From: Acidimicrobiia bacterium
Lineage (GTDB): Bacteria > Actinomycetota > Acidimicrobiia > Spongiisociales > ZC4RG35
NCBI GenBank assembly: GCA_041747855.1
Contig: JBGTEJ010000055.1
Span: 3,909 to 67,908, forward strand
DNA: 64,000 nucleotides
Direction of reading: 5' to 3'
Shown here: positions 328 through 14,057 of the stretch, one piece after another
Position numbering within the stretch: position 1 is the first letter of the stretch
Layout of the letters: each line of letters begins with the position of its first letter
Notes under the pieces: model-generated
Database searches by the model: none
What the model saw: the letters and a program-made list of their open reading frames with translations, nothing else
Told to the model about the DNA's origin: nothing
Translations under genes and position numbers: made by a program

Positions 328-375
328 GTGGAGCTGAGGGGATTTGAACCCCTGACCCCTTGACTGCCAGTCAAG
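328..375 (-). repeat. displaced copy of the 3' part of tRNA-Ala (distal att site of the island)
   Basis: 328-375 is identical base for base to 13983-14030. 47 of the 48 nt lie in the tRNA, from the discriminator back to the 5' strand of the anticodon stem. No 5' half of a tRNA follows it. Confidence 0.9.
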
Positions 376-479
376 ATCAGGGGGTTTCGACCACCTGGGA
401 GAACTTAGAAAATGGTGCTCTGAACAGGGGTTTCGTCTCTCGTTGGCTCTCGGCGTTTTCCAGCGTTTTTCATTCTCCC

Positions 480-497
480 GCGGACTTTCCGCGGACT
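480..497 (+). promoter_or_regulatory. two phased GCGGACT repeats (putative integrase arm-type sites, left arm)
   Basis: GCGGACT at 480-486 and 491-497 (11-nt spacing), about 105 nt inside the left att copy. The same heptamer recurs near the other two att copies. Confidence 0.45.
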
Positions 498-520
498 CTG
501 CCCCGACCTGTCCCGAGAGC

Positions 521-2224
521 TTAGGGACCTTCACCTGCCATCTTCGTGGCCAACTTGTACGCCTTCCGTGCCGAGGCCCCCAGTGATTTCAGTTTCCCCT
601 CATTCTTGAAGTCTTTCTTGAAGTCATCGGCCTCTCCGAGGTCGTCATGTCGCTCTGACATCGCCGCAGCTCCGATATACGCCCACCGTGACAGGACCTT
701 GCCGAGATCAGGATCCGAGAGTGCTTTCGCCGGGTCGCCGAGGATTGCGGCGCCGTCCCCCGCCGCCTCGCGGGCGATCTGACCGACCAAATAGCACGCG
801 ATTAACTTGGTCAACAACCAACTGGACCTATAGATCGCCGGAAAATGGGCCTTCTGCTGTTGAACAGCGGCGCGAATCTCGTCAGCTAGCACAATGTGGT
901 GCGCCGAGATGCGCTCGGAGAAGATGTGAGGGTGGTTCTCGGATTCGAAGAGCGATAGCTTCTTGACTGCTAGCCAGGGCCACTCATTGAAGATCGCACA
1001 TAGGATCTGTGCAGCGTCGTCGTTTCTAATGACCCTGGCGGTGCTGGGAGCTACCGAATCTGGGCGCGTCTCATAGAAGATCCCGGGGAATTCTGCCTCG
1101 AACTCGCGGAGAAGGCGCAGTTGCGGACCGCTATTCGCCATCAGGTTCCGGGGGTTCACCGCAGTCTGCGTGTTGGAGCGCCGGCTGACTTCTTTTTCGA
1201 GCAGCGGCCTTCCGGCAACTTCAACGACTTTGACCGCGACTCGAAGGGCACTGGTGAGCTGGCCATCCACGAGGCCACGTTGGAATGCGAGTACCGACTG
1301 TGCCCCGTTCACTACCGATGGATTGTGCACGCTCAGAATGTCGCCCTTGACCTCGAAGCGATCACAAATCACGGTAAGCCCGTTGTGATAGGCAAGGAAG
1401 TCCAGATGTTCGGACTCGGTCGCGATCGCTCGATCGAGACCCTTGCTTACTTTGTTCGCCCGGAGTTGGTGACGCACATTGAGGGCGAACAGCCACCGAT
1501 CGTGAATCCCCGGCCACGCGGCGATGGCCTCCGCCGTCACGGGGATGATTGCCACACGGTTGGGGGGATCACCCGAAATGAGCAGTTCAGTCTGATCCAC
1601 AAAGATCTCGATCGTCCCCTGCAGACGCTCCGGCGACCGTACCGACTCCGCCAATGGGCCCAGCTCATTGATCGTCCACACATCGAGGTAGCCGGCACCG
1701 CTTGTATCGCGGACGCTCTCCACCTTGCTAGCGGCGTCAGTGGTAAGTCGACCGCTTGTGATCAGGACCAGCCGGACGCGAATGCTCTCTGGATCGCGCT
1801 GAAGCTTCGCCTCGAGACCGAGGTCTTCAACCAATTTGCGAAGCGACGGTTCCAGCTTTGCCGCTAGCAGCCTACGCAGCGTGATAGCGTCGGTAAAGTG
1901 AGCGGCCGCACCAGCAAGACGGTCCACATCTGTATCGCCAACCCACCCGTCGGGTCCCTCGGTGTATTTCGACTGGTAGATCACAAGCGTCTCTGGTTCG
2001 TCATCGCCGGACGAAGGCTCGACAAATAGCCCGTCGATGCCTTTGTCATCATCACCATCACACACGTAGTCGTAGGCGTCGATATCGCCTATGCCTACAA
2101 CGTTCCGGAGAAACCAGAGCAGAAGTACGGACCTTGGCTTGGCCAAGCCTCCCGACTCGTCAGTAGTGGCCTGGGCGCCCAGAGTCTTGTAATAGGCCTT
2201 CTGCTTGGCGCTCGACACTTGCAT
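521..2224 (-). CDS. AIPR-family abortive-infection-like protein
   Basis: 567-aa ORF with ATG start. N-terminal VCDGDDDKGIDGLF and central NGLTVICD...VVNGAQS motifs resemble the AIPR (abortive infection phage resistance) family as I remember it. Confidence 0.6.
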   Translation of the reverse strand: MQVSSAKQKAYYKTLGAQATTDESGGLAKPRSVLLLWFLRNVVGIGDIDAYDYVCDGDDDKGIDGLFVEPSSGDDEPETLVIYQSKYTEGPDGWVGDTDVDRLAGAAAHFTDAITLRRLLAAKLEPSLRKLVEDLGLEAKLQRDPESIRVRLVLITSGRLTTDAASKVESVRDTSGAGYLDVWTINELGPLAESVRSPERLQGTIEIFVDQTELLISGDPPNRVAIIPVTAEAIAAWPGIHDRWLFALNVRHQLRANKVSKGLDRAIATESEHLDFLAYHNGLTVICDRFEVKGDILSVHNPSVVNGAQSVLAFQRGLVDGQLTSALRVAVKVVEVAGRPLLEKEVSRRSNTQTAVNPRNLMANSGPQLRLLREFEAEFPGIFYETRPDSVAPSTARVIRNDDAAQILCAIFNEWPWLAVKKLSLFESENHPHIFSERISAHHIVLADEIRAAVQQQKAHFPAIYRSSWLLTKLIACYLVGQIAREAAGDGAAILGDPAKALSDPDLGKVLSRWAYIGAAAMSERHDDLGEADDFKKDFKNEGKLKSLGASARKAYKLATKMAGEGP

Positions 2225-2453
2225 ACCTTACATTGACTTCTCAGATCGGGTTCTAAGACCATCGTATTCGGCGCAGACGGCGGGCGGACTTGTCGGATGC
2301 CAATTCCGTTCTGGCAACGGAGATGGATGATCTCAGGAGTCCCGCTATGGCAGGGAATTCCGGTCAGGGAGACCCTGCTGAGATCGAATAGGGTGATCAC
2401 TTCCATTTTTGACGTACGAAGAAGCGGACGTGCTGACACAATCCCATCTCAGA

Positions 2454-3329
2454 TTACGCACGAGGGTCCTCCTGATTAGCAAGGCTTCGCAGTTCCAGGC
2501 AGGCCTTGTACAAGACGCGCTCGAGTTCGAGCTCGGTGGGAATGCCGTCTCGCCGTCGGTATGCAGTCGTGGTGCCAGCGATCGGCTCGTAACAGTAAAG
2601 GCCGACCGCGTCGACGATCTGCTGGGCCGTATGCGCCCAGCGCACGGTCGCGGCGAAATCTGAGTCGCTCAGGACCCGGACGGCCAAGAACACATAGATC
2701 GTCGGAGGGTTTGCCCGCAACCATGTCGTCAGGTCGGACCCACCAGCGCCTCCACCGGCTGGCAGGTTTCCCTCAATCGTCTGTCGCCGGCTGTACTCGC
2801 CCTTAAGATCGATCGACTTGAATGCCAGTTCCTTGACTCGCTTCCCCACGTCCGCCGATCCACGTCGCCCTACTGGCTTCTGTTTTGGACTCAGCGCATG
2901 GCGGGGTGTGCCCATCATCTTCGCTTCAAGCAAGAAGCGGATCGGGCCCTCGGCCGGGTAGACACCATCCAGGTTGTGCTCAGGCACGATCAGCCCGGGA
3001 ACCTTGTTGCGTGTGTACAACCTGCCGATCTCGGAGCAATTCTCCAACAGTAAGGCAAGCAAGTCGTTGAAGAAATCCCCCTTGCCGTTCTGGATATCAG
3101 CGGAGAGCGCGGTCCGTTCGGAGTCCGTCAGAGAGGTGTCGGCTGTGGCCGCAAGATCTGTATCGAAGGCTGACATCGCGGCTAGGAAGCCCGACTCCAC
3201 TTGGTTCCAGCTAGCTGCGTTCGATGCGGCAGCAGCCGAGTAAAGCTCCCGCTGCGGCAGACAGCGCGGACTCGTGGCCACGACGTCGCTGATCTTTCGG
3301 GGCTGGCTTATCGGTTGCGCCACACTCAT
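2454..3329 (-). CDS. putative type II restriction endonuclease (PD-(D/E)xK-like)
   Basis: 291-aa ORF starting 22 nt downstream of the methyltransferase stop, same strand. NLDGVY ... LLEAKMMG fits a D...ExK nuclease core. No family recognised. Confidence 0.45.
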   Translation of the reverse strand: MSVAQPISQPRKISDVVATSPRCLPQRELYSAAAASNAASWNQVESGFLAAMSAFDTDLAATADTSLTDSERTALSADIQNGKGDFFNDLLALLLENCSEIGRLYTRNKVPGLIVPEHNLDGVYPAEGPIRFLLEAKMMGTPRHALSPKQKPVGRRGSADVGKRVKELAFKSIDLKGEYSRRQTIEGNLPAGGGAGGSDLTTWLRANPPTIYVFLAVRVLSDSDFAATVRWAHTAQQIVDAVGLYCYEPIAGTTTAYRRRDGIPTELELERVLYKACLELRSLANQEDPRA

Positions 3330-3351
3330 CCTTCGTTCGGCTCGGCACAGC

Positions 3352-5043
3352 CTAAGTCTCTAGCGACAACGCCACCAGCGACGGATCGAGGTCGAAGACA
3401 GATGAGGCTAGGTCAGTGGCAGCCTTCCGGTCACGGGTTCTAAATGCTTCGATCAACCCATGACGAGTTGGACCATTGATATCCGTGGGATCTGGAACTC
3501 TCATCCTTCGGATGTATTGCGCCTGGAAACGATAGGTTCCACCCCGCATCTTGACGCAATAGGCGCCTATCAAGGCATTCGCCACATCCGAGAGCAGGAG
3601 GCCACCGAGAACCTCGAGATCCCATTCTTCCGACACGATGAAGTACAGGTTGTGATGCGGGTAGCGATCACCTTTGTCGAGCACAGGATTGGAGCGAGCT
3701 TTGATGTCTGGCAGCACCAGCTTCTCACGCATCTGCAAGGTCGGATCGACCTTATCGATCGTGCGGTACCAAGAGTGTGGTCGTCGCCTCGCCACGTGGC
3801 GGCCCCGAAGTCTCTCCTCGTTGGCTTCGAAGTAGGCCCTCAGCCGTGGATAGTCCGCAAGGTCAACCAGGTCGTCATCCTTCCACGGGTTCACCAGGAA
3901 GTGTCCGGCCCAGTCTGCCCTTCCTCCGGCCGTGTCACGTGCAAGCAAGAGTGGTAGCAATCGATCTTCCTCGACAAGAGAGGTGTCCGAAGTGATGTAC
4001 ACCTCGTCGCAGCCAGTTGCCACACCAATTCCCACTCGGGTTGCCGTATTTCTGCTCTCGAGCAGTGGAAATCGACTTTCGAGTTCGGCGACCAGCGCCT
4101 GCCGTGCCGGGTTACCCGATGGCCACGATGCTTTGCCGGAGAACCACCTCTTGAGTCGAACACCATCGGCGGCACTGCGACTTATGGCTGGTGACTCTTC
4201 CTCGATCCAAGTACTCACGGCCTTAGCATCCACGGGACCGAATCCCGCGCGGGCGTCCACGACATTTACGCCTTCCTGGCTTCCTTGGCGGAGTACCACG
4301 ATCGCCGGGTAGGCGGACACCTCGTCCTCAAAGGCATCGACATCGTGCATGCTCACGACAGAGTCGATGGCGTAGCGTGAAGCAATAAGTTCCCGCAGCG
4401 CACCGCCGTACTGGTTATGCATCCACCGGTCGGCACAGATGAAGCCCAGTCTCCCACCGTCACCCAGCATCCGGAGGCCGACCTCGATGAACCCCACGTA
4501 GATGTCGCTGCGGCCCCGCATCGTCGGACAAGCGCGCCGGTATTCATCGGTAAGCGGGCGAGGCACATCCTCAAGTCGGATGTACGGCGGATTGCCCACG
4601 ACGAAGTCGGCACAAGCAATTGGATGAGGGTGGAGGAGAAAGTCGGCTGTCGTCACCCACCTCGAGGCGAGATTCTCCGAGAGGTCAATCGAGTAGCCCA
4701 GATCAGTAAGCTGCTGTATCACAGCCTTTCGAGCGAGCTCGACATTGGACTCCAGTAGGTCGAAGGCTCGAATGGCGCCACCAGTGGTCGCAAGATCCCT
4801 GTTGTTTCGATCACAGGCTTCAACGAGACGACTGACCATCGGATTGAGGAAGGCTCCGGTTCCGCAGGCGGGCTCGACGATGATCCGCCCACCGAGGTCC
4901 TCGTCAGGTCGATACCCGACAAGGTCCAAGATGAACTCGACCACCCAATGGCGGGTGAACACTTCACCGTAGTTGGACTGACCCAGCTCGTCGGCCGGGA
5001 GGACTACCGTCGGCAGGAGACTGAGCTGTGATGTGGCTTTCAT
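3352..5043 (-). CDS. N6-adenine DNA methyltransferase (gamma class, Eco57I/TaqI-like, with C-terminal specificity domain)
   Basis: 563 aa. SAM motif VEPACGTGAFL lies upstream of catalytic VVGNPPYIRLED. The C-terminal half (VGIGVATGCDEVYI) looks like a TaqI-type target recognition domain. Confidence 0.8.
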   Translation of the reverse strand: MKATSQLSLLPTVVLPADELGQSNYGEVFTRHWVVEFILDLVGYRPDEDLGGRIIVEPACGTGAFLNPMVSRLVEACDRNNRDLATTGGAIRAFDLLESNVELARKAVIQQLTDLGYSIDLSENLASRWVTTADFLLHPHPIACADFVVGNPPYIRLEDVPRPLTDEYRRACPTMRGRSDIYVGFIEVGLRMLGDGGRLGFICADRWMHNQYGGALRELIASRYAIDSVVSMHDVDAFEDEVSAYPAIVVLRQGSQEGVNVVDARAGFGPVDAKAVSTWIEEESPAISRSAADGVRLKRWFSGKASWPSGNPARQALVAELESRFPLLESRNTATRVGIGVATGCDEVYITSDTSLVEEDRLLPLLLARDTAGGRADWAGHFLVNPWKDDDLVDLADYPRLRAYFEANEERLRGRHVARRRPHSWYRTIDKVDPTLQMREKLVLPDIKARSNPVLDKGDRYPHHNLYFIVSEEWDLEVLGGLLLSDVANALIGAYCVKMRGGTYRFQAQYIRRMRVPDPTDINGPTRHGLIEAFRTRDRKAATDLASSVFDLDPSLVALSLET

Positions 5044-5187
5044 TGATCTGTTCCAAGTTACACGAGTGTGATCTTGGAGACGACCCTATCGCGGCACACC
5101 GACACATTCCCCGCGTAGGCGTTCGCGTTGGGCGGGATCGCAGCAATTGGGCTGAATCGGTCACAGTCGCCTGGGACAATCCCGGGC

Positions 5188-5949
5188 ATGGAACCGACTC
5201 GTTTCGCAATTGTTGGAGACATCCATGGCGAATTCCGAGCATTAGTCGAAGGTCTGGACGGCGCGCGGGAACTGTTCGGCCCCCTGGATTTCGTCCTGTC
5301 GGTGGGCGACGTGGAGGCAAACCGCACTCCCGAAGATGCCCAAGGCGTGGTCAGTCCAGAGAGGTACCGCAAGGTCGGAGACTTTCCCGAGGTGGTTTCG
5401 GGAAACCTCATACTCGGGTCGCCCTTCTACTTCATCGCCGGCAACCACAATCCGTACCCAGCCCTAGATGAACACGGACCTGGCCACTGGGTCGCAGACT
5501 GTCATTGGCTCGGCCGGTGGGGAGTAACGACCATCCACGGGATCCGGATCTCGTTCCTCTCAGGTATTCGGTCTCCGAAATACTCCGATACCTCCAAGCC
5601 CATCCGGACCGGTCCGAAGGTCAGGACCTACTGGCATCGATCTGAACTGGACGCCCTCATCAGGAAGTCATCGGAGGCTGGACCTATCGACGTGCTGCTG
5701 ACTCACGAATGGCCCGAAGGAATCGGAACGACTCGGCGTGGGCAGGAGGCCGGTCAGTCCGAAATCCGGCGGCTCGTCGAGACTGTGCGTCCGAAGGTCC
5801 ATGCCTGTGGACATATCCATCATCCGCTGCAGGCCACTATCGGGGGAACAACCGTCGTCTGCCTCGCCAAGGTGTCAAACCGCATCGGCGGCATCGCCGT
5901 GTTCGAGACGTGGAATGACGGGCTTCGGCGCCTCGACGACGCCCCTTGA
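5188..5949 (+). CDS. calcineurin-like metallophosphoesterase
   Basis: Motifs IVGDIHGE, VGDVEA, GNHNPY, THEWP and ACGHIHH in canonical order. The ORF track starts at TTG 5128; ATG 5188 (MEPTRFAIVGDIHG) is the more likely start. Confidence 0.75.
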   Translation: MEPTRFAIVGDIHGEFRALVEGLDGARELFGPLDFVLSVGDVEANRTPEDAQGVVSPERYRKVGDFPEVVSGNLILGSPFYFIAGNHNPYPALDEHGPGHWVADCHWLGRWGVTTIHGIRISFLSGIRSPKYSDTSKPIRTGPKVRTYWHRSELDALIRKSSEAGPIDVLLTHEWPEGIGTTRRGQEAGQSEIRRLVETVRPKVHACGHIHHPLQATIGGTTVVCLAKVSNRIGGIAVFETWNDGLRRLDDAP

Positions 5950-5989
5950 AGGAATGCTTCCAGCGGAATAGTCTCAGAATGTCAAGGAG

Positions 5990-6439
5990 TTAGCCCACCG
6001 CTCCGTGGCAGCGCTTGTACTTCGAGCCCGATCCACACGGGCACGGATCGTTCCGGCCGACCTTGACAACCGCAGATGCCGGCCGTGGCATGACTGGGGT
6101 GGGCTGCGTCTGAGTCACCACCCTCAGCCGTTGCTCCATGATCTCGATGTTGCGCTCCCTGGCATCGAGCATCCGTTGTCGCTTGGCGAACTCGACCTCA
6201 AGCTCGGCTAGGAACACCGGGCCATCGCCGAGGTCATCTACGACCGAGCGGAGCTCGTGCTGGATCAGGGCGGCGATCCCTCGACCCATTGAGACGCCGA
6301 GGGAGTCGCAATAGCTCTTCCACGCCGCCCACGTCGCTTCGGCTGCGGGAACTCGCACCATTTGCCAGATCTCGTCGTGGCCAAGACCGGAAAAGATCCT
6401 GCGATCGATCTTGGCGAGCGTACCGCGGTCAAAGTCCAT
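5990..6439 (-). CDS. SEC-C motif protein (C-terminal CPCGSG...C.H zinc knuckle), N-terminal part unknown
   Basis: 149 aa ending [24 protein letters not shown] start preceded by GGGGAGAGG. Confidence 0.6.
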
Positions 6440-6451
6440 CAGCCTCTCCCC

Positions 6452-6467
6452 TGTCTACATGTAGACA
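6452..6467. promoter_or_regulatory. perfect 16-bp palindrome TGTCTACATGTAGACA (putative operator)
   Basis: Self-complementary 16-mer directly upstream of the RBS and ATG of the SEC-C gene. Confidence 0.4.
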
Positions 6468-6860
6468 TGCCGCAACTTGTTGCATGTGCGTGTGTCTTTT
6501 GAGGGGGTCGGTACGCGAGGCGCGTGAGCCTCGCGACAGACCGGTTCCGGATCGGTTCGGCGAGAACAATCAAATCTCGATTCGATGTTTGGATGGTTCG
6601 TTCCACATCCGCTCGCTGGTAGGTTCTCGTAAGCTGAGACGCCTCCATGTCTCCCCAAGGCGAATCGGACTTCTGCTTGCTGCGAAACCCCGCCCAGGAA
6701 CGACCGTCCGAGCCAGCCACCACACCTTCTGGCCGGTCTCATCGAACGCCCGGCCCGATCACAGCCTGCATTCCGGGCATGTGAGCCCAGCCGCAGAGGC
6801 TGATTCGGTAGTTGGAGATCCTGAGACACCGGTCATCAACCATTCCGATAGTCGGTCACC

Positions 6861-6903
6861 CTCCCAAACCACTCCCAGAACCGCTCCCAAACGACTCCCA
6901 ACC
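6861..6903 (+). repeat. four phased CTCCCA direct repeats (iteron-like)
   Basis: CTCCCA at 6861, 6872, 6884 and 6895 (spacing 11, 12, 11 nt) with similar flanks (aac/gaac/aac/acc), inside an ~870-bp stretch without convincing coding potential. Confidence 0.5.
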
Positions 6904-7313
6904 TGGCAGGGGGCCCGATCGAAGACTCATGGGAGCGAGGATGACGAAGAACCTCTGCCAGCGTGCGCAGACCCTTGTGGGAACCCCTTTCAGATCTCCC
7001 TGAGCGGGCCGGAAAGTCAAGGGTGATCGACGACATAGGGTGCGATCGACACGTGAGTTTCGACGCCGTACGTTCCGGCCGATGTTCGGAGATTCGGGTC
7101 GATAAGTCACCGGATCAAGAAGACCAGATCAACCTGTCAACCGAGTGTCAGAAACTCTCCCATGCTTCTCTGACCAGGCCCGATAAGGCATTCTCCAAGT
7201 CGACGGCATCAGACGCGATCACGTCGACCAGCCTGTTGTCTTTCCACAGCCGATCACCTACTGGGAGGGTGAATGAGAGTGAGTTGAGAGGGTGCCGACC
7301 CATCATCACGGGC

Positions 7314-7517
7314 ATGGAACACGACAATCGGCTCCTCACCGTCGAGGAACTCGCCGAGTACCTCGGTGTGCCGGTGACCACGCTCTACCAATGGCGGTAT
7401 CGAAGAGAGGGACCTCCAGGCTTCCGGGTCGGACGGCATCTCCGTTACCGGTGGAGCGACGTGCAGCGCTGGATCGAGAGTCGTCTTGAGGTTGGTCGCT
7501 CGGGTCGAGTGTCGTAG
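7314..7517 (+). CDS. xis: excisionase-family helix-turn-helix DNA-binding protein
   Basis: MEHDNRLLTVEELAEYLGVPVTTLYQWRYRREGPPGFRVGRHLRYRWSDVQRWIE matches the excisionase/MerR-type HTH pattern. It is the first gene of a plus-strand string ending in int. The ORF-track N-terminal extension (6963-) does not look coding. Confidence 0.7.
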   Translation: MEHDNRLLTVEELAEYLGVPVTTLYQWRYRREGPPGFRVGRHLRYRWSDVQRWIESRLEVGRSGRVS

Positions 7518-7574
7518 GCGTGATGTAGGGTGGCTTCCGAGAGCCACAACCCGCATCGTGGTGGAGGTCTATTG

Positions 7575-7814
7575 ATGCCAGGTCGAATATCTAGCTCCCT
7601 GCTTGAACAGCTCGTTGGTGTGAACTGTCCCGCTTGCCAATTCGGGTTCGAAGTCGAGGTGGCCGATGCAGCTTGTCAGGTCTGGCGGTGGTGCCCATGT
7701 TGCAGGTCACGGATTCGTCTTATGGAGCCCGGTGGTGAGGTACATGGAGCCATGGAAGAGGTCGAATCGGCGATGAGGGAGTTCCAGAAGAACCTCGGGA
7801 GGATGTTCAGATGA
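7575..7814 (+). CDS. small zinc-ribbon protein (CxxC ... CxCC)
   Basis: CPACQ...(20 aa)...CPCC. GGAGG lies 8 nt before ATG 7575. The stop overlaps the next start (ATGA at 7811-7814). Confidence 0.5.
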   Translation: MPGRISSSLLEQLVGVNCPACQFGFEVEVADAACQVWRWCPCCRSRIRLMEPGGEVHGAMEEVESAMREFQKNLGRMFR

Positions 7815-8770
7815 GGTTCAGGGAGGCCCTCCAGGTTCAATTACAGGAGAGATACCGGCGCCTCTACAAAAGTGAGTGGACCACATTCGAAGTCAACGTC
7901 AGATTCTTCCTGCAGTGGATTGACCGGGTCGCAGCGCTTCGATCAATCGTTGACTCACTTCGAAAGAGCCATCCCGATCTCGACCCCACGGAGTGGTGGG
8001 GTGAGGTACAAAAGCGCAGGGCCTACGAAACACCTGAGACAGAGGAAGCAAGGGCCAAGCTCGTTCTGCATGCGCTCCATGACATCGCATTCACCGAGGG
8101 AGTCGATTTCACCAAACTGGTCTGGCCTCTAACCAGAGAGAGCAATTACAACGACTCCATTCGACAATTCTGTTCGCAGTGGGTCGAACCAGTTGTCGAA
8201 TATCTACAAGAGCGGCTCGGTGCCGAGAGTGACATGCTCTACCTGCTCGAGAGGTATCGGCGCCGCCTTGCGTGGTTCGAACGGGATCGGCTCTATGAGT
8301 TGTACCAGGCGGACACCTCGAAGGGCGAGGCCGTGTACGACCGAGATCTACGCATGTTCCTCTTCGAACAAGGCGTTGACTACCCATTCTCCCAACCCGA
8401 AGGACCGTCGGGGAAGGCTGACGTTATTGCCTTGGTCGATTCGGACGACCCGCTCACCTGCGAAGTGAAGCTGTTTGACGGAGATCGATACGGAGTCTCG
8501 TACCTGGCAAAAGGGGTCGGTCAGGCCGTCCGCTACGCGGAAGACTATGGCAAAACCGCGGCTCACCTCGTCATGTTCAACCTGACCGGGCATGCTCTGC
8601 AGCTCCCGTCTGACGATCTAGACGCTGGTTGGCCCCCTCGCATTGACATTGCTGGCGTGACCGTCTTCCTCGTCGTGGTCCAGGCTGCTCCGCGGCCCTC
8701 CGCGAGCAAATCTGGCAAGGCAAAGGCGGTCGAAGTCATCCGGTCAGATCTCGTGGCCGACATCCCATGA
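7811..8770 (+). CDS. hypothetical protein with C-terminal PD-(D/E)xK-like nuclease motif
   Basis: 319 aa. GKADVIALVDSDDPLTCEVKLFDG gives a D...ExK arrangement followed by a conserved-looking QAVRYAEDYG helix. The N-terminal ~190 aa look helical and have no recognisable family. Confidence 0.45.
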   Translation: MRFREALQVQLQERYRRLYKSEWTTFEVNVRFFLQWIDRVAALRSIVDSLRKSHPDLDPTEWWGEVQKRRAYETPETEEARAKLVLHALHDIAFTEGVDFTKLVWPLTRESNYNDSIRQFCSQWVEPVVEYLQERLGAESDMLYLLERYRRRLAWFERDRLYELYQADTSKGEAVYDRDLRMFLFEQGVDYPFSQPEGPSGKADVIALVDSDDPLTCEVKLFDGDRYGVSYLAKGVGQAVRYAEDYGKTAAHLVMFNLTGHALQLPSDDLDAGWPPRIDIAGVTVFLVVVQAAPRPSASKSGKAKAVEVIRSDLVADIP

Positions 8771-8797
8771 AGACCTAGCTGGCGAAAGGAGTCGACG

Positions 8798-9925
8798 ATG
8801 GCGCATATGAGAAGGAAGGGTTCGGGTCAGTGGCAGGTTCGGTACCGGGACCCATCCGGCATTGAGCGAGCCCGAAACTTCCACCGGAAAGCGGATGCCG
8901 AGAAGTTCCTGGTGACCGTCGAGGCGGACAAAGTACGAGGGATGTGGGCGGATCCTCGCCTGGCAAAGATCACCGTTGCCGAGTGGTTGCCTACGTGGCA
9001 GGAGAGCAGGGTCCACCTTCGACCTTCGACGCGTGCGATGTCGGAGTCACTTCTGCGGAATCACGTGATCCCCTACTTCGGTGACCGGCGTCTCGGCTCG
9101 GTGACTCCAACGGTCGTCCAGGGGTTTGTTGCTCACCTCGAGGAGAAGGGTCTGGCGCCGTCGACGATCCGCCAGTCCTACCTGCTGGTCGGGGGCCTAT
9201 TCTCCTCGGCGCTCGAATCCGACCTCATCGTCCGCTCTCCCTGCCGTGGGATCAAGCTGCCGAAGAGCTCTCAGACCGAGGTGCGTTTTCTCACCACTGA
9301 AGAGGTGACCGATCTCGCAGAGGTGATCGATGACCGCTATCGAGCCCTTGTGCTGACAGCCGCGTACGCCGGCTGTCGGTTCGGAGAGCTTGCCGGTCTA
9401 AAGACACACCGTCTGGATCTGCTCAGGCGAAGTCTCACAGTCGCCGAAGCGCTCTCCGAGGTGCGTGGACAAGTTCGGCTCGCTCCTCCTAAGACCGCGG
9501 CAGCTCGGCGCCAGCTAGCGTTGCCCAAGTTCCTAACTGAAGAACTGAATCACCACTTGGCTACATGGCCACCCAGTGCGGAGGGGTTCGTGTTTACAGC
9601 ACCTCAAAGTGGCCCACTTCTTCGCCGCAACTTCCGGAGGCGCACGTGGCTACCTGCAGTGAGAGCCTCGGTTCGCGAGCCTTTGCGATTCCACGACCTG
9701 CGGCACACTCATGCAGCGATGCTGATCGCCCAAGGCGAGCACCCGAAGGTCATCCAGAATCGACTCGGACACTCTTCGATCAAGGTAACGCTGGACACCT
9801 ATGGCCACCTCTTTGAGGGGCTCGATGAGGCCGCAGCCGAGCGTCTCGATGCGACATTCCTTCGGACGCCTGCGGAAGTTGCGTTGACTGCAAACCGAGG
9901 GGAAGTTCGACAGGTTCGTCAGTAA
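8798..9925 (+). CDS. int: tyrosine recombinase / phage-type integrase
   Basis: 375 aa. AAGGAG RBS before the ATG. C-terminal RFHDLRHTHAAMLIAQG...LGHSSIKVTLDTYGHL carries the R..HxxR..Y catalytic signature, and there is an N-terminal SAM-like arm-binding region. Confidence 0.9.
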   Translation: MAHMRRKGSGQWQVRYRDPSGIERARNFHRKADAEKFLVTVEADKVRGMWADPRLAKITVAEWLPTWQESRVHLRPSTRAMSESLLRNHVIPYFGDRRLGSVTPTVVQGFVAHLEEKGLAPSTIRQSYLLVGGLFSSALESDLIVRSPCRGIKLPKSSQTEVRFLTTEEVTDLAEVIDDRYRALVLTAAYAGCRFGELAGLKTHRLDLLRRSLTVAEALSEVRGQVRLAPPKTAAARRQLALPKFLTEELNHHLATWPPSAEGFVFTAPQSGPLLRRNFRRRTWLPAVRASVREPLRFHDLRHTHAAMLIAQGEHPKVIQNRLGHSSIKVTLDTYGHLFEGLDEAAAERLDATFLRTPAEVALTANRGEVRQVRQ

Positions 9926-9980
9926 GAGCCTGCAGCCCTCCACATCGATTGGATCTTCGTGTTCGTGGCGACCTCGACGG

Positions 9981-10820
9981 CTACGACGGAAAGATCTTGG
10001 CTCGCTGGATACCGAACAGGATGCCGGGACCGCCCACGTGGATGACCGTGGCCTCGCCTTGTCCCTCGATTGATATGGGCCGAAGGGCCTGGGGGTTAGT
10101 CATGAATATCAGTGCTCGATCGGTAATCACGACAGAACCTCCCCAGCCTGACCAGATGCCGGCGACACGAACAACACCGGTCCGAACGACCGCTATGTCA
10201 AAGACGGGAAGACCATCAGCCACGGCCCGAGGAGAGTGCCTCAGCAGCTGGTTGTATGCCCACAAAGGGAGGAGACGCTGCCAACCTGAAAGGTTGACAC
10301 GTAGGCGGCCGGGTCGTTGCTCATGTTCGACCTCGCCAGCGATGTAGGTCGTCGTATTGTGACGGATCTCCAGCAGCTTGTGGCCCCGCAGATCGTGGAT
10401 GTCAGCGTTGACCATCAACAATCGACCGCTCTCGTCGAGGTTAAAAGACAAGCTCTGGAGCGAATCGAAGTCGAATATCGCGAACGGCGCCTCACTGGTA
10501 GTTGAAATCGAACCGACGAGAAGCTTATTGAGTGAGGACGGGGGGACCTGGACACCGCCCCACTGCTGCGGTTCCGCAGTCTTCCACTCATACAGCGCGG
10601 TGTCGGTCAGTCTCAATTGACCACGGGTCACGGCGTCATGGCACGCCGGGCACAGAGCGATCATGTGTGCCTGGTCATGAGTCTGATAGATCGCCCATTC
10701 CCTGATGTGGTGCAGCTCGATGAGCGTATTAGGGCATGCGGGGTTCGAGCATTGGCCCGCGGCCTCATCAAGTAGCGCTGACTTAACCGAAGTCGGTACT
10801 GCTGGGCGATGCTGAGCCAT
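9981..10820 (-). CDS. HNH endonuclease-domain protein with ~190-aa uncharacterised C-terminal domain
   Basis: CSNPACPNTLIELHHIREW...HMIALCPACHDAV (Cys4 plus HH..N/H pattern) in the first 80 aa. The remainder has no recognisable motif. Confidence 0.65.
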   Translation of the reverse strand: MAQHRPAVPTSVKSALLDEAAGQCSNPACPNTLIELHHIREWAIYQTHDQAHMIALCPACHDAVTRGQLRLTDTALYEWKTAEPQQWGGVQVPPSSLNKLLVGSISTTSEAPFAIFDFDSLQSLSFNLDESGRLLMVNADIHDLRGHKLLEIRHNTTTYIAGEVEHEQRPGRLRVNLSGWQRLLPLWAYNQLLRHSPRAVADGLPVFDIAVVRTGVVRVAGIWSGWGGSVVITDRALIFMTNPQALRPISIEGQGEATVIHVGGPGILFGIQRAKIFPS

Positions 10821-10954
10821 ACGAAGGATTCTGCTCCCACCCGAGATTCATCCAGAATCCACCCGGCCTCCGCTGTCACGGACCTTGGGCTCCTACGGCA
10901 CTTCCTGGAGGGTGGCGACGGGCCCTCCGAGGAGCACTTCGACACCGGCTCTCC

Positions 10955-10982
10955 GCGGACTCCCGCGGATTTTCCTCGAACT
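10955..10982 (+). promoter_or_regulatory. three phased GCGGACT-type repeats (putative arm-type sites, module A right arm)
   Basis: GCGGACT 10955, GCGGATT 10965, TCGAACT 10976. The first repeat starts exactly 101 nt before the att core at 11056, the same distance as in module B. Confidence 0.5.
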
Positions 10983-11055
10983 CTGGTCCGAACCATAGGC
11001 TCGAAGTCCAAAAGCGAGACGGCGACACCCCAGGTAGGTGGGGGTTTTATGGGGA

Positions 11056-11100
11056 TGGAGCTGAGGGGATTCGAACACCTAACCCCTAGACTGCAAGTCA
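11056..11100 (-). repeat. diverged tRNA-Ala 3' fragment (internal att copy separating modules A and B)
   Basis: 40 of 45 nt identical to 13984-14028. One mismatch changes the anticodon position from GGC to TGC. No tRNA 5' half is present. Confidence 0.8.
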
Positions 11101-11497
11101 TTGGAGCGGTTTCGCTGCATGTTCCCGACAGCCCTGCAGTACCTGTGCTCGCCGAGTACTCTGCGGTTATAACTGTTCAGATAGACGTTGAGCTCCAGCG
11201 GGACGCCGCTCTGCGCGGAGTTGTCGGTTCTGTGGGCAAGCAAACTGGCGGCCATATCGCTGTCGCGATCCTCGACTCCGACTGGGCAACGAGCGGCCGC
11301 GGTGAATATGTGGACCCATCAGATCCGGTCGTTCGCATGGCAGCTCACCTGGCCATCAACGAGCATGACGGCGAGTATCCGTGGCCACTAGTCCAGGCAA
11401 AGGGACTACAGCACTATCGGATCGATTCATCCTTTTTCGAGATGGCAGAACGGCGGCTTGGCAGGAAGTGACTGAGTTGCACTAACCGGGGAAGTCG

Positions 11498-11746
11498 TCA
11501 GCAAGATGGTGCCACTTCTCGCCTCGTTTGGGCGTGGTAGCGCTGTAGTAGCTCAGCGTGCTTCGGCGAGATCAAAGCGGTCGACCGCATGTTTTGGAAC
11601 AACTCGTATCGTTCAGCCAACGGCAAGAACTTCTCGTATTCCGCGGCGAACTTGTTGTGCCTGAGCACGGCGAGTTCTTCGGACGAGAGCTGCGCCCTAA
11701 CGAGCCCGGTGTAGGTGTCCGGATGGGGAATCGTCGCTTCGTCCAC
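11498..11746 (-). CDS. hypothetical 82-aa ORF (weak)
   Basis: GTG start only and no recognisable motif. It may be a gene fragment. Confidence 0.25.
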   Translation of the reverse strand: MDEATIPHPDTYTGLVRAQLSSEELAVLRHNKFAAEYEKFLPLAERYELFQNMRSTALISPKHAELLQRYHAQTRREVAPSC

Positions 11747-11926
11747 CTACTTGACGATTCAGTAGGGGTTGCGGAAGTAGTGCCTCAGAAGAGGCTCCCA
11801 TTTCGGGTACTGAAGCTAGTAGATGTATGCAATCTCTCTGACCTGCTTGTGGAGCTTCTCGAGTCATCGGCAGCTAACGGGTCTTCGTTGATCGGGAGGC
11901 GCTTACCGACCCGTCCTGCCGACAAT

Positions 11927-12724
11927 TCATTCGAGGATGCGACGATGGTCGAGCTGACCGACTCGCTCTCCTTGTCGAGCCAAGTAGCGGCGTTGAGTCA
12001 CGCCCCACGCGTCTTCAATGAGGTTGCCTATCGCGAACGCCATATCTTGTTGGAATCCATCGTCTGGTACCTGGTCGAGTTCGAAGTGCCAGAGCAGATT
12101 GTCGTCAGCGCAGCCTCCTACGGAGTTGTCCCACGAACCCGGCTCAGCCCAGCCTTCAGCAACGTTGCCAAGAAATGCGCCCTTGGTTGAGACGAGACCG
12201 ATAGTCAACTGCCAAGGAGTCGGAAGGCCAACGCGGCGGTGAAGCTGGACTGTGAACTTCAGCATCGCCCAGGTGTAGGTAACGATGGAGGCAAGGGCGA
12301 AGGTCCGGACGGTTTCGCCCCGATCATCCTGGTACTCACGCGCGCCGCTACTTCCAAGACCGAGCTCGATGGCGCCAGAGCGGTGAACACCAAGGAATCT
12401 CCTCCATGCCCCATCCCTGCCGTGATCATTAACCACGACCGCGGCATGAGCTGTGGGGAATGTCTGGTAGCCAAACCTCACACCTCGACCTTCCACTTTC
12501 ATTTCCTGTTCCGCTTTGAACCAGTCCCAAAAGTCTCCATCGAACCACAAAGCATCTCGTTCTGGGTCAGCGGGGAGCAATACGGCTTGCACGGTGAGTG
12601 ATTCGAGCCGTGTTGCCAATCCAACGCCGCCGAAGTCCGATCGTCGAACGTTATCGAGACCGTGGCGGTCGAGAGTCCTACGCCAACGGGCTCGGATTAG
12701 CTCGGTGTCGGCGAGAGACGTCAT
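11927..12724 (-). CDS. hypothetical protein, 265 aa, no recognisable domain
   Basis: ATG 12722-12724 overlaps the TGA of the upstream gene (ATGA). Composition looks protein-like and Trp-rich (WFDGDFWDWF). Confidence 0.6.
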   Translation of the reverse strand: MTSLADTELIRARWRRTLDRHGLDNVRRSDFGGVGLATRLESLTVQAVLLPADPERDALWFDGDFWDWFKAEQEMKVEGRGVRFGYQTFPTAHAAVVVNDHGRDGAWRRFLGVHRSGAIELGLGSSGAREYQDDRGETVRTFALASIVTYTWAMLKFTVQLHRRVGLPTPWQLTIGLVSTKGAFLGNVAEGWAEPGSWDNSVGGCADDNLLWHFELDQVPDDGFQQDMAFAIGNLIEDAWGVTQRRYLARQGERVGQLDHRRILE

Positions 12725-13848
12725 TGCGTCATCTGGCGGCGAAGCCGTACTGTGAAGTCTTCCGCCAGTTCGTTGGTCTGTTGGAGAAGAGCGGCTCGTC
12801 TGCGGACCGGCGGGGACAGCACGACCACGGCCTGGTCGTTATTCCTAAAGCCCATCGTTGCCATGTTTGGGTTGCGCTCTTGTTCGATGCGCGTCCGCCA
12901 AGGCATGTACCCCGCGCCCCGGAGGGCGATTACAGGAGCAGCGTGGCTCAACCGCTCAGCTGAGTCGACATGGTTGAGGAGTCGAGCACAGAAGCGAAGA
13001 CCACTGGCGATTCGGTTCGAGACGTCCTCCTCGATCACAGATCTGATGCCCGACGCCCAGGTGCTCTGATCCACGGCAGGCTGAACGATCAGGAGGTTGG
13101 CAGTCTCGTCGATCGACACCAGACCCGAGCCTCGCTCCTGAGTCAATTGAATCGCGTCCCCCTTGACCGAAACCTCAGTGCCGACCGCCGACGAAAGCAC
13201 CGAATCACTGCCGGTGAGGGCCTCGGACAGAAGAAACCTTCCCAACACATCCTCATCGAGTTCGGCCGGCCGTAGTACCGAGCGCAGCGGTCCGCTTGCG
13301 ACCGCCAGTATGAGGTCAGGGCCACCAGAATGGAGCTCCGTTGGTAGCAGGCCTCGAGCCCGATCAACAAGCTCGGCATGGTCTAGGGGAGCCGCCTCGT
13401 TTGCGAGCGCAAATTCGTAGATGGCACGCATGACTTTGTCGCGTAGCTCAGATGCGTCACTGAATCCGGCAGTGAAGTGCCCACGTTCCCATCCCCTCAC
13501 TTCGCGTATGAACTCTGCCTGCTGCTCCTCGGGGTCAATGCCATCCTGTATGAACACAAGGACCGGTGTCGCATCACGAGCCTCGCGATACTCCTCGTGA
13601 GTTGCCGAGAGTCCAGATGCTTGAACTGCGCCGTACTCAGCACCAAGAATCAGCAGAAGGACGTCCGCATCGCGAACTTCAGCCAGACAGGCTTGCTGTG
13701 GGGTATTTGAAGTCGCGCTGAAGTCTTCGGCCCGAACTGGCGTGTGGCGAAGGTTGGCAACCGCAGACGCGGCGGCGTCTCGAAGGGCTTCCTGGCCACG
13801 GATGAGAGAACTTATGAACACCTGCATCGGACCCATTATCTCTCGCAC
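12721..13848 (-). CDS. DUF4062-like (TIR / nucleoside 2-deoxyribosyltransferase-like fold) N-terminal domain protein with unknown C-terminal half
   Basis: QVFISSLIRGQEALRDAA...PVRAEDF...DADVLLLILGAEYG...SATHEEYREA...PVLVFIQD follows my recollection of the DUF4062 consensus (VFISS..., acidic residue, GxxYG, S.T..EY, hydrophobic strand). The GTG at 13848 is doubtful; ATGs at 13836 or 13827 are likelier starts. Confidence 0.6.
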   Translation of the reverse strand: MREIMGPMQVFISSLIRGQEALRDAAASAVANLRHTPVRAEDFSATSNTPQQACLAEVRDADVLLLILGAEYGAVQASGLSATHEEYREARDATPVLVFIQDGIDPEEQQAEFIREVRGWERGHFTAGFSDASELRDKVMRAIYEFALANEAAPLDHAELVDRARGLLPTELHSGGPDLILAVASGPLRSVLRPAELDEDVLGRFLLSEALTGSDSVLSSAVGTEVSVKGDAIQLTQERGSGLVSIDETANLLIVQPAVDQSTWASGIRSVIEEDVSNRIASGLRFCARLLNHVDSAERLSHAAPVIALRGAGYMPWRTRIEQERNPNMATMGFRNNDQAVVVLSPPVRRRAALLQQTNELAEDFTVRLRRQMTQ

Positions 13849-13882
13849 CTATGACAGAACCGCGGTCAATTGGGGCCGTTCC

Positions 13883-13910
13883 TCGGACTCCTGCGGACTC
13901 TTCGCGGACT
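13883..13910 (+). promoter_or_regulatory. three phased GCGGACT repeats (putative arm-type sites, module B right arm)
   Basis: TCGGACT 13883, GCGGACT 13893, GCGGACT 13904. The first starts exactly 101 nt before the tRNA 3' end at 13984. Confidence 0.5.
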
Positions 13911-13983
13911 CCTGGCCAAGACAGCGTCCGCGAGATCATCCGTCGGGACAGCAAACCCCCAGGTAGAAGAGGGTTTTTAGGAG

Positions 13984-14057
13984 TGGAGCTGAGGGGATTT
14001 GAACCCCTGACCCCTTGACTGCCAGTCAAGTGCTCTGCCAGGCTGAGCTACAGCCCC
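13984..14057 (-). tRNA. tRNA-Ala (anticodon GGC)
   Basis: Reverse complement is GGGGCTGTAGCTCAGCCTGGCAGAGCACTTGACTGGCAGTCAAGGGGTCAGGGGTTCAAATCCCCTCAGCTCCA. It has a 7-bp acceptor stem with G3:U70, anticodon loop CTGGCAG and a TTCAAAT T-loop. CCA is not encoded. Confidence 0.92.

Follow-up and report, generated by a model that had tools for sequence, protein, structure and literature searches.

Arm-type sites are familiar from the attP of phage lambda, where they are called P1/P2 and P'1–P'3, and mycobacteriophage L5 has arm sites as well. Among the integrative elements of actinomycetes (AICEs), pSAM2, SLP1 and pMEA300 have attP immediately downstream of int, the gene for the integrase (te Poele et al. 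2008, PMC2440964). For elements that have accumulated in tandem, the references given in PMC5704250 include the accretion/CIME scheme of ICESt1 and ICESt3 from Streptococcus thermophilus (Pavlovic 2004; Bellanger 2011) and the accretion scheme of the Streptomyces pathogenicity islands (Zhang & Loria 2017).

Here we compare with these systems a locus in which a tRNA-Ala(GGC) gene is accompanied by short, helically phased repeats. It lies in what we call the window, the whole 64-kb stretch of DNA under analysis. With a probability of about 0.7, our interpretation is that a lambda-style (heterobivalent) tyrosine integrase uses the repeats as its arm-type sites, that the two modules beside the tRNA gene (A and B) are the unit that likely excises, and that module B is cargo carried in cis.

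Anatomy of the tRNA-Ala locus

The features needed for the argument are listed below by position in the window, and the roles given for att cores and arm sites are predicted ones.

328–375, minus strand: frag1, distal copy of the tRNA-Ala 3' end and outer left att core, 48/48 identical to 13983–14030
480–497, plus strand: distal (P-like) arm sites, two GCGGACT copies 11 nt apart, the first at +105 from the core
6963–7517, plus strand: excisionase-family HTH gene (HTH_17; TIGR01764 above cut-off)
8798–9925, plus strand: intact tyrosine integrase gene, 375 aa
9862–9889, plus strand: vestigial repeat triple in the 3' end of the intact int, TCGGACG/GCGGAAG/GTTGACT, spacing 10 and 11
10833–10954, plus strand: frameshifted remnant of a second integrase 3' end (HPRFIQN...PRTPADFPRTL)
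10955–10982, plus strand: inner arm sites, module A, GCGGACT, GCGGATT and TCGAACT, two of the three degenerate
11028–11043, plus strand: inner terminator-like hairpin and T run, between arm sites and core
11056–11100, minus strand: frag2, decayed inner att core, 5/45 mismatches
11927–13848, minus strand: module B cargo, a 265-aa gene and a DUF4062 gene
13883–13910, plus strand: outer tRNA-proximal (P'-like) arm sites, TCGGACT, GCGGACT and GCGGACT, CGGACT intact in 3/3
13956–13972, minus strand: outer terminator-like hairpin between arm sites and tRNA, its stem weaker than that of the inner copy
13983–14057, minus strand: tRNA-Ala(GGC) gene, its 3' 48 nt forming the att core

Together with the tRNA gene, frag1 and frag2 delimit two modules, A (376–11055) and B (11101–13982), and GC content (0.59 versus 0.61) sets neither of them apart. 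Module A carries genes for AbiU/AIPR, a type II restriction enzyme and methyltransferase, a SEC-C protein, the excisionase-family HTH protein, a two-gene cassette, the integrase and an HNH protein. Pfam and PADLOC scans of its main ORFs found defence-type, HTH and int genes only and no replication or FtsK/Tra-type transfer genes, and module A is therefore a defence island and not an AICE. The HTH_17 gene is a likely directionality factor; the segment between it and int (7569–8782) is absent from the two closest relatives, L119 and L154, in which the excisionase gene abuts int, and this fits a recent insertion of the cassette at 7575–8770.

The tRNA identity of the core stops exactly at the end of the anticodon stem, and tRNA-Pro(GGG), the other tRNA found beside this integrase subfamily, shares that stem with tRNA-Ala(GGC) (CTTGA/TCAAG). 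For both reasons the anticodon stem-loop is the likely core-site and crossover region. The mismatches of frag2 fall at positions 17, 22, 26, 33 and 40, i.e. in the T loop, the T stem, the variable region, the anticodon stem and the anticodon loop. At the anticodon-loop position (11086–11100) frag2 reads TGC and not GGC, and the stem is broken. An origin from tRNA-Ala(UGC), as the TGC loop would suggest, was rejected because the stems of frag2 are broken too; the reading is probably a product of decay and not a sign of another tRNA. A search across the genus with the chromosomal left flank gave no syntenic match that could represent an empty site.

An earlier description of this DNA, the sequence-only reading, had proposed that the two modules share a collinear arm, and formal alignment bears this out. 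On rechecking, the repeats lie at 13883/13893/13904 in module B and at 10955/10965/10976 in module A, the first of each triple 101 nt before the core T (cores at 13984 and 11056), and the extra GCGGACT copies at the far-left end are found at 480 and 491 as described. Global alignment of the arms gives 64/102 identical positions with one indel and a score of 22, about 9 sd higher than for shuffled sequences (−24.5 ± 5.2, maximum −4) and far from that of random genomic 101-mers (−24.1 ± 6.1). The "ccccaggtag" that had been placed at 13957 and 11028 is present at both positions, and a terminator scan showed the element running from it to "gggTTTTT" to be a hairpin with a terminator-like score in both copies. 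The same scan calls a 7-bp hairpin at the first two repeats of arm A (10952–10969), which lie within TCCGCGGA palindromes, and CCGCGG flanks most repeats across the CGGACT family.

Commonness of the heptamer throughout the genome, a doubt that the sequence-only reading had raised against itself, holds for single copies and not for the phased array. Single GCGGACT copies are ordinary, both in the 64-kb window (17 observed, 13 ± 3.9 expected) and genome-wide (243 copies, with a median heptamer count of 195). Relaxed phased triples occur in the 2.09-Mb assembly at arms A and B only, and exact phased GCGGACT pairs at 480/491 and 13893/13904 only.

The window has three int 3' ends, belonging to the intact gene (9862–9925), the remnant (10833–10990) and the bare arm beside the tRNA gene (13881–13983). 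On the module A side, the homology between the arms runs on upstream into the frameshifted integrase remnant, which reads HPRFIQN..., then ...LEGGDGPSEEHFDTGSPRTPADFPRTL; on the module B side it ends about 4 nt before the first repeat. Arm B reads PRTPADSSRT in the integrase frame and therefore appears to descend from an int 3' end whose recombinase was lost. Of the earlier suggestion that module B had either lost a recombinase or never had one, the first half thus stands and the second does not. Both arms would descend from an int 3' end together with the int-proximal arm, which would explain why they are collinear.

Candidate arm-type sites and their relatives

Int-family matches were found in 58 of the 61 genomes searched (G000 included). 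The closest copy in this set, L007 (81% identical), lies beside tRNA-Pro(GGG) and has three GCGGACT repeats at 1666/1676/1687, 98 nt from the tRNA 3' end and within the last int codons, where they read LRTPADFSRTL. An array beside tRNA-Ala in other genomes, which the sequence-only reading had suggested looking for, was found at tRNA-Ala(GGC) in G001, G011, G008 and L119; in G001 and G011, both of the same genus as the window, the triples are perfect and stand at −100/−101. Taking the tRNA-Pro(GGG) loci (L007, G037:C66) and the tRNA-Ala(GGC) loci (window, G001, G011, G008, L119) together, the triple is at −98 to −102 in all, and two distal repeats from +105 are present in every distal arm seen (window, G008, G037:C66, G061:C14 and L154). 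L007, L043 (G037:C66), L064, L070 and L093 have the same Int subfamily as the window and CGGACT arms, at tRNA-Pro(GGG) and tRNA-Ala(GGC), and the anticodon stem that these tRNAs share may have opened a way to switch targets.

A search for exact copies of the triple, with one genome per species, returned 103 stretches, mostly from Acidimicrobiia and other Actinomycetota, where our own base-composition estimate puts the chance expectation at about 1–4. Among these stretches, the first repeat lies 88–122 nt, mostly 98–102 nt, from a nearby tRNA of matching orientation; many int-less arms in relatives are near contig ends. The CGGACT arm is part of a family of tyrosine-integrase islands that target tRNA genes and are common among Acidimicrobiia and other Actinomycetota.

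Two further sets of triples were noted. In L052, L060, L065, L081, L086 and L115 (position 249), perfect GCGGACT triples follow the 3' end of tRNA-Phe(GAA) at a distance of about 107 nt and are oriented opposite to that tRNA, and no int homologue was detected beside them. Triples with a distinct spacer style (..ACGCGGACT..) come largely from Patescibacteria/Saccharibacteria MAGs, with some records labelled only "bacterium" (L054, L057, L058, L061, L063, L069, L071, L072, L075, L078, L079, L083, L088, L089, L092, L100, L105, L106, L108, L114, L118 and L125); these have no tRNA within 600 nt and gave no match in tblastn with the window Int.

The repeats follow the integrase and not the tRNA. One word is used at both tRNA-Pro and tRNA-Ala, and other words (GCGGACCAAAC, GTGTGGGCCA, GATGTGGACGC, GTGTGGACTC, TGTGGACAGA and ACGGACAAA) accompany integrases of about 46–67% identity. 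Nine such integrases were found, each with two or three direct repeats in 10–11 nt phase that start 87–98 nt before the 3' end of a tRNA (-Pro, -Val, -Ile, -Ala(CGC) or -Lys), and each array has the order repeats, hairpin, tRNA. Conservation was measured in seven arms that had been found by synteny or Int homology and not via the repeat: mean pairwise identity is 0.92 in the CGGACT columns, 0.49 in the rest of the arm and 0.43 upstream. This conservation holds where the neighbouring WYL gene is only 65–68% identical between genomes.

In canonical members of the family the three repeats lie in the last int codons, and one explanation of their conservation is that they persist only as codons of the C-terminal tail of Int (LRTPADxSRT), the likeness of the arms being pseudogene homology. 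It fits the position of the canonical triple within the int frame and the fact that arms A and B still read PRTPAD..RT, but we hold it to be extremely improbable. Perfect pairs stand in the non-coding distal arms, and perfect triples are found without an upstream int frame in G001, G011, L119, L120 and L121. The 10–11 nt spacing places successive copies in different reading frames (RT / AD / RT), and the repeat-encoded tail of the window Int (residues 356–375) is disordered in the AlphaFold model (pLDDT <50). The triple also decays in intact int genes that no longer abut the core, as seen in the internal copies at 9862–9889 of the window and in L119, which suggests that the sites are kept only beside it. 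Because the frames differ, the non-coding distal arms carry the repeats, the encoded tail is disordered and the separated internal copies decay, the constraint is best read as acting on DNA and not on protein.

The catalytic domain of the integrase matches PF00589 (2.2e-18), and R194, K232, H299, R302, H325 and Y335 are invariant among 14 homologues. Full-length lambda Int aligns with it over about 363 columns. In an AF2 model built from 14 sequences the N-terminus forms strands at 2–6, 12–17 and 23–28 and a helix at 31–46 (pLDDT 82–88), while residues 1–72 have no Pfam arm-domain match at E<1. The N-terminal motif RYRD..G.E.A..F..K.DA is kept in integrases of 30–42% identity (L104, L096 and L076), and GCGGACT arrays are still present there. 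The arm-type reading of the 3+2 layout draws on the catalytic residues, the modelled N-terminal domain, the lambda Int alignment and the persistence of the N-terminal motif together with the arrays. The sites themselves stand on both arms, three at −101/−91/−80 and two at +105/+116, and their CGGACT word is unlike the tRNA core and conserved in relatives. Position, phase and co-variation with Int thus lend strong comparative support to the earlier proposal that the repeats are arm-type sites of the module A integrase, and they are very probably docking sites of the island integrase beside tRNA-Ala.

Excisionase binding is the main rival to arm-type Int sites: the repeats would be bound by the excisionase or directionality factor (HTH_17), or by a host bending protein, and not by the N-terminal domain of Int. 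Phased direct repeats within a single arm are the typical targets of excisionases and of winged-helix directionality factors, and the locus has phased direct repeats and an excisionase-family gene. Excisionase sites are usually limited to one arm, as in lambda, whereas here one word is found on both arms in the 3+2 arrangement of arm-type Int sites. The retention of the N-terminal Int motif in the distant integrases with GCGGACT arrays also argues for Int, and we regard the excisionase alternative as unlikely.

With arm-type Int sites as the preferred reading, the att site of the family would measure about 270 nt. Three repeats one helical turn apart would begin about 101 nt before the core and be followed by the terminator hairpin, the core would be the 3' 48 nt of the tRNA, reaching as far as the anticodon stem extends, and two more repeats would follow from 105 nt beyond it. 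Binding of Int to the repeats is the step that we infer.

Module B and the likely unit of excision

According to the sequence-only reading, module B has kept its cis sites, and a satellite-like mobilisation in trans would be open to it. In full, module B would be an integrase-less element with complete cis sites, excised and integrated by the Int and Xis of module A. Two core copies do flank it, the best-preserved repeat triple is its own, and int-truncated elements with both arms intact do exist (G037:C66, 100442–108787). A search of 11 same-genus genomes did not find the cargo of B, which speaks for horizontal acquisition, but a search for the DUF4062 protein, and for a second copy of the module with these arms, returned from 60 relatives one partial match only, in an unrelated context. 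No distal arm or repeat pair is present at the left end of B: local alignment there scores 9, equal to the shuffle mean of 9.2 (right arms score 28 in the same scheme), and a profile built from four distal arms gave no match once its repeat columns were left out. In frag2, the left core of B, mutations have reached the anticodon stem and loop, where crossover would probably take place. The sites on either side of B (arm A–frag2 and arm B–tRNA) are of the same type, both with the arm on the left, and therefore do not make a canonical attL/attR pair. With the distal arm lacking, the left core mutated and the flanking arms on the same side, the satellite proposal is not supported, and we consider it very unlikely.

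The possibility that arm B is a fused left and right arm was also tried and rejected. A left-arm nhmmer match at 13803–13922 (E=8.5e-9) is lost when the repeat columns are removed and is therefore driven by the repeats alone.

Module B has two cargo genes only and about 10 recognisable int-frame codons left in its arm. Compared with a CIME, which has functional attL and attR, its right site is intact, while its left core has 5/45 mismatches and no distal arm can be detected; compared with an autonomous satellite, it has no complete attP-equivalent of its own. The 8.3-kb element of G037:C66, with the last ~100 int codons only, perfect cores and 2+3 perfect repeats, is by these sequence features the true CIME-like comparator, and module B does not match it.

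The outer pair of sites is canonical: frag1 with the distal arm at one end and arm B with the tRNA gene at the other, with 48/48 identical cores and five intact CGGACT words. The inner junction is decayed, with the five mismatches of frag2 and 2/3 of the arm A repeats mutated. Since the inner junction is decaying and the outer pair is intact, the likely unit that could excise is the whole of A+B, 13.7 kb, and module B looks like accreted cargo on the island, CIME-like at most. The locus would then be a tandem accretion of related elements with a decaying inner junction (int remnant, arm A and frag2), and the integrase and excisionase of module A could still excise the 13.7-kb A+B composite, with B as cargo in cis. 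The direction and order of the accretion events are what we infer from this arrangement, as is present-day mobility. A metagenome scan for the core/distal-arm junction found one contig (L154), an integrated relative, and no circular form or attP junction.

The locus might also be an inert graveyard of serial integrations in which arm B is merely the youngest remnant. Tandem decayed elements are the common state at tRNA hot spots (PMC5704250), three int 3' ends have gathered here, the int of G008 is frameshifted, and the better state of arm B could mean later arrival and not current use. Against decay alone stand a full-length int with all catalytic residues, which shares 93% of amino acids and 89% of nucleotides with that of L154 and is thus better conserved as protein than as DNA, and outer 48-nt repeats that are identical. 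The CGGACT columns, too, are far above the surrounding arm between genomes whose coding genes are about 67% identical. We therefore think a graveyard rather unlikely, and prefer the composite A+B with its intact outer sites.

The close relatives share an arrangement into which the window fits. In L119 (Int 83%), 3.1 kb of unrelated cargo separate an int gene with decayed internal repeats (739–1854) from a perfect triple at 4938, after which tRNA-Ala(GGC) stands at 5039, and there is no inner core. G008, a member of the window's genus, shows a frameshifted int and the two arms at the same tRNA-Ala, with 3.6 kb of other cargo between int and arm (DUF6414 and Schlafen AlbA_2) and again no inner core. 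In L154 (Int 93%), at least 0.9 kb of different DNA follows int, and the contig ends before any arm. The subfamily layout is accordingly, in terms of sequence, int, variable cargo slot, arm and tRNA, as seen in L119 and G008, where the slot measures 3–4 kb and the arm is perfect or nearly so, and the window looks like this layout with an accretion scar inside. Its DUF4062 gene starts 35 nt from arm B. In the cargo slot of L036 (G008:C30, 11609–15117), the first gene likewise begins right beside the arm, with its transcription leading away from the tRNA.

In G061, the start of the HNH gene is 94% identical to window 10692–10832; after it come 1.1 kb and then an arm and a 45-nt core, both perfect, and downstream of this core lie an unrelated 11.9-kb island and then the tRNA. 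Homology to the window is lost at 10832, precisely where the int remnant starts. The 11.9-kb island itself (L151; G061:C19, flipped 1402–13261) has a 27%-identical tyrosine integrase and is the tRNA-proximal element at the same tRNA-Ala(GGC), so different integrase families stack at this tRNA gene.

At six loci at least (window B, G001, G011, L119, L120 and L121), homology sets in no more than about 4 nt from the first repeat, and the cargo upstream is unrelated. A speculative reading, which we put forward with considerable doubt, is that accretion followed by loss of the inner att site amounts to regular loading of defence cargo between int and the int-proximal arm, the bare triple arm being kept by selection as a shared right end or landing pad. 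If this were true, the window would be an intermediate in which the inner junction is still visible.

Implications and comparison with described systems

Nothing here is conceptually new: arm-type sites, accretion in tandem and the decay of inner att sites all belong to textbook knowledge; the host group is little studied. What the analysis offers is a full att anatomy (core, 3+2 arm sites and terminator) for a widespread, undescribed island family of the Acidimicrobiia, by which island boundaries should become predictable in their mostly uncultured genomes. It also offers a ready set of int, xis and attP for genetic tools. The DUF4062 defence pair is better seen as cargo within a composite island of 13.7 kb than as an independent satellite, which changes the unit for transfer tests, and one arm specificity at two tRNA targets with a common anticodon stem makes a case for target switching.

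The best database matches of the integrase are the Micromonospora pMLP1 att/int region and integrases of Gordonia, Rothia and Actinomyces phages, at 31–34% over 85–94% of the length. All are actinobacterial tyrosine integrases, and the relationship, drawn from the Int protein alone, is distant.

With the AICEs, the island shares an actinobacterial host, integration at a tRNA 3' end, attP just downstream of int and the order xis then int. It differs in that module A has no replication or FtsK/Tra-type transfer genes and in that its cargo is of defence type (AbiU/AIPR, type II R-M, HNH and the DUF4062 pair). With the CIMEs, as they appear in the accretion scheme cited in PMC5704250, it has in common that elements stand in tandem at the 3' end of a tRNA gene with an inner att site that is chimeric, that one partner is without integrase, and that the outer sites are predicted to excise the composite. 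A CIME is defined by keeping attL and attR, whereas the left site of module B is degenerate and without distal arm; the island in the window, putatively mobile, also has no conjugation module.

The anatomy also matches that of the lambda-type systems. Among the differences, identity of the window Int with the phage integrases of the collection searched stays <35%, all five of its predicted sites have one orientation, and the triple of canonical members lies inside the int coding end. Common to both are a three-domain Int with an extra N-terminal domain (a modelled one in the window), a short core between two long arms, arm sites (predicted ones in the window) that number three in a row on the side of int and two on the opposite arm, an excisionase gene beside int and an att site of about 270 nt.
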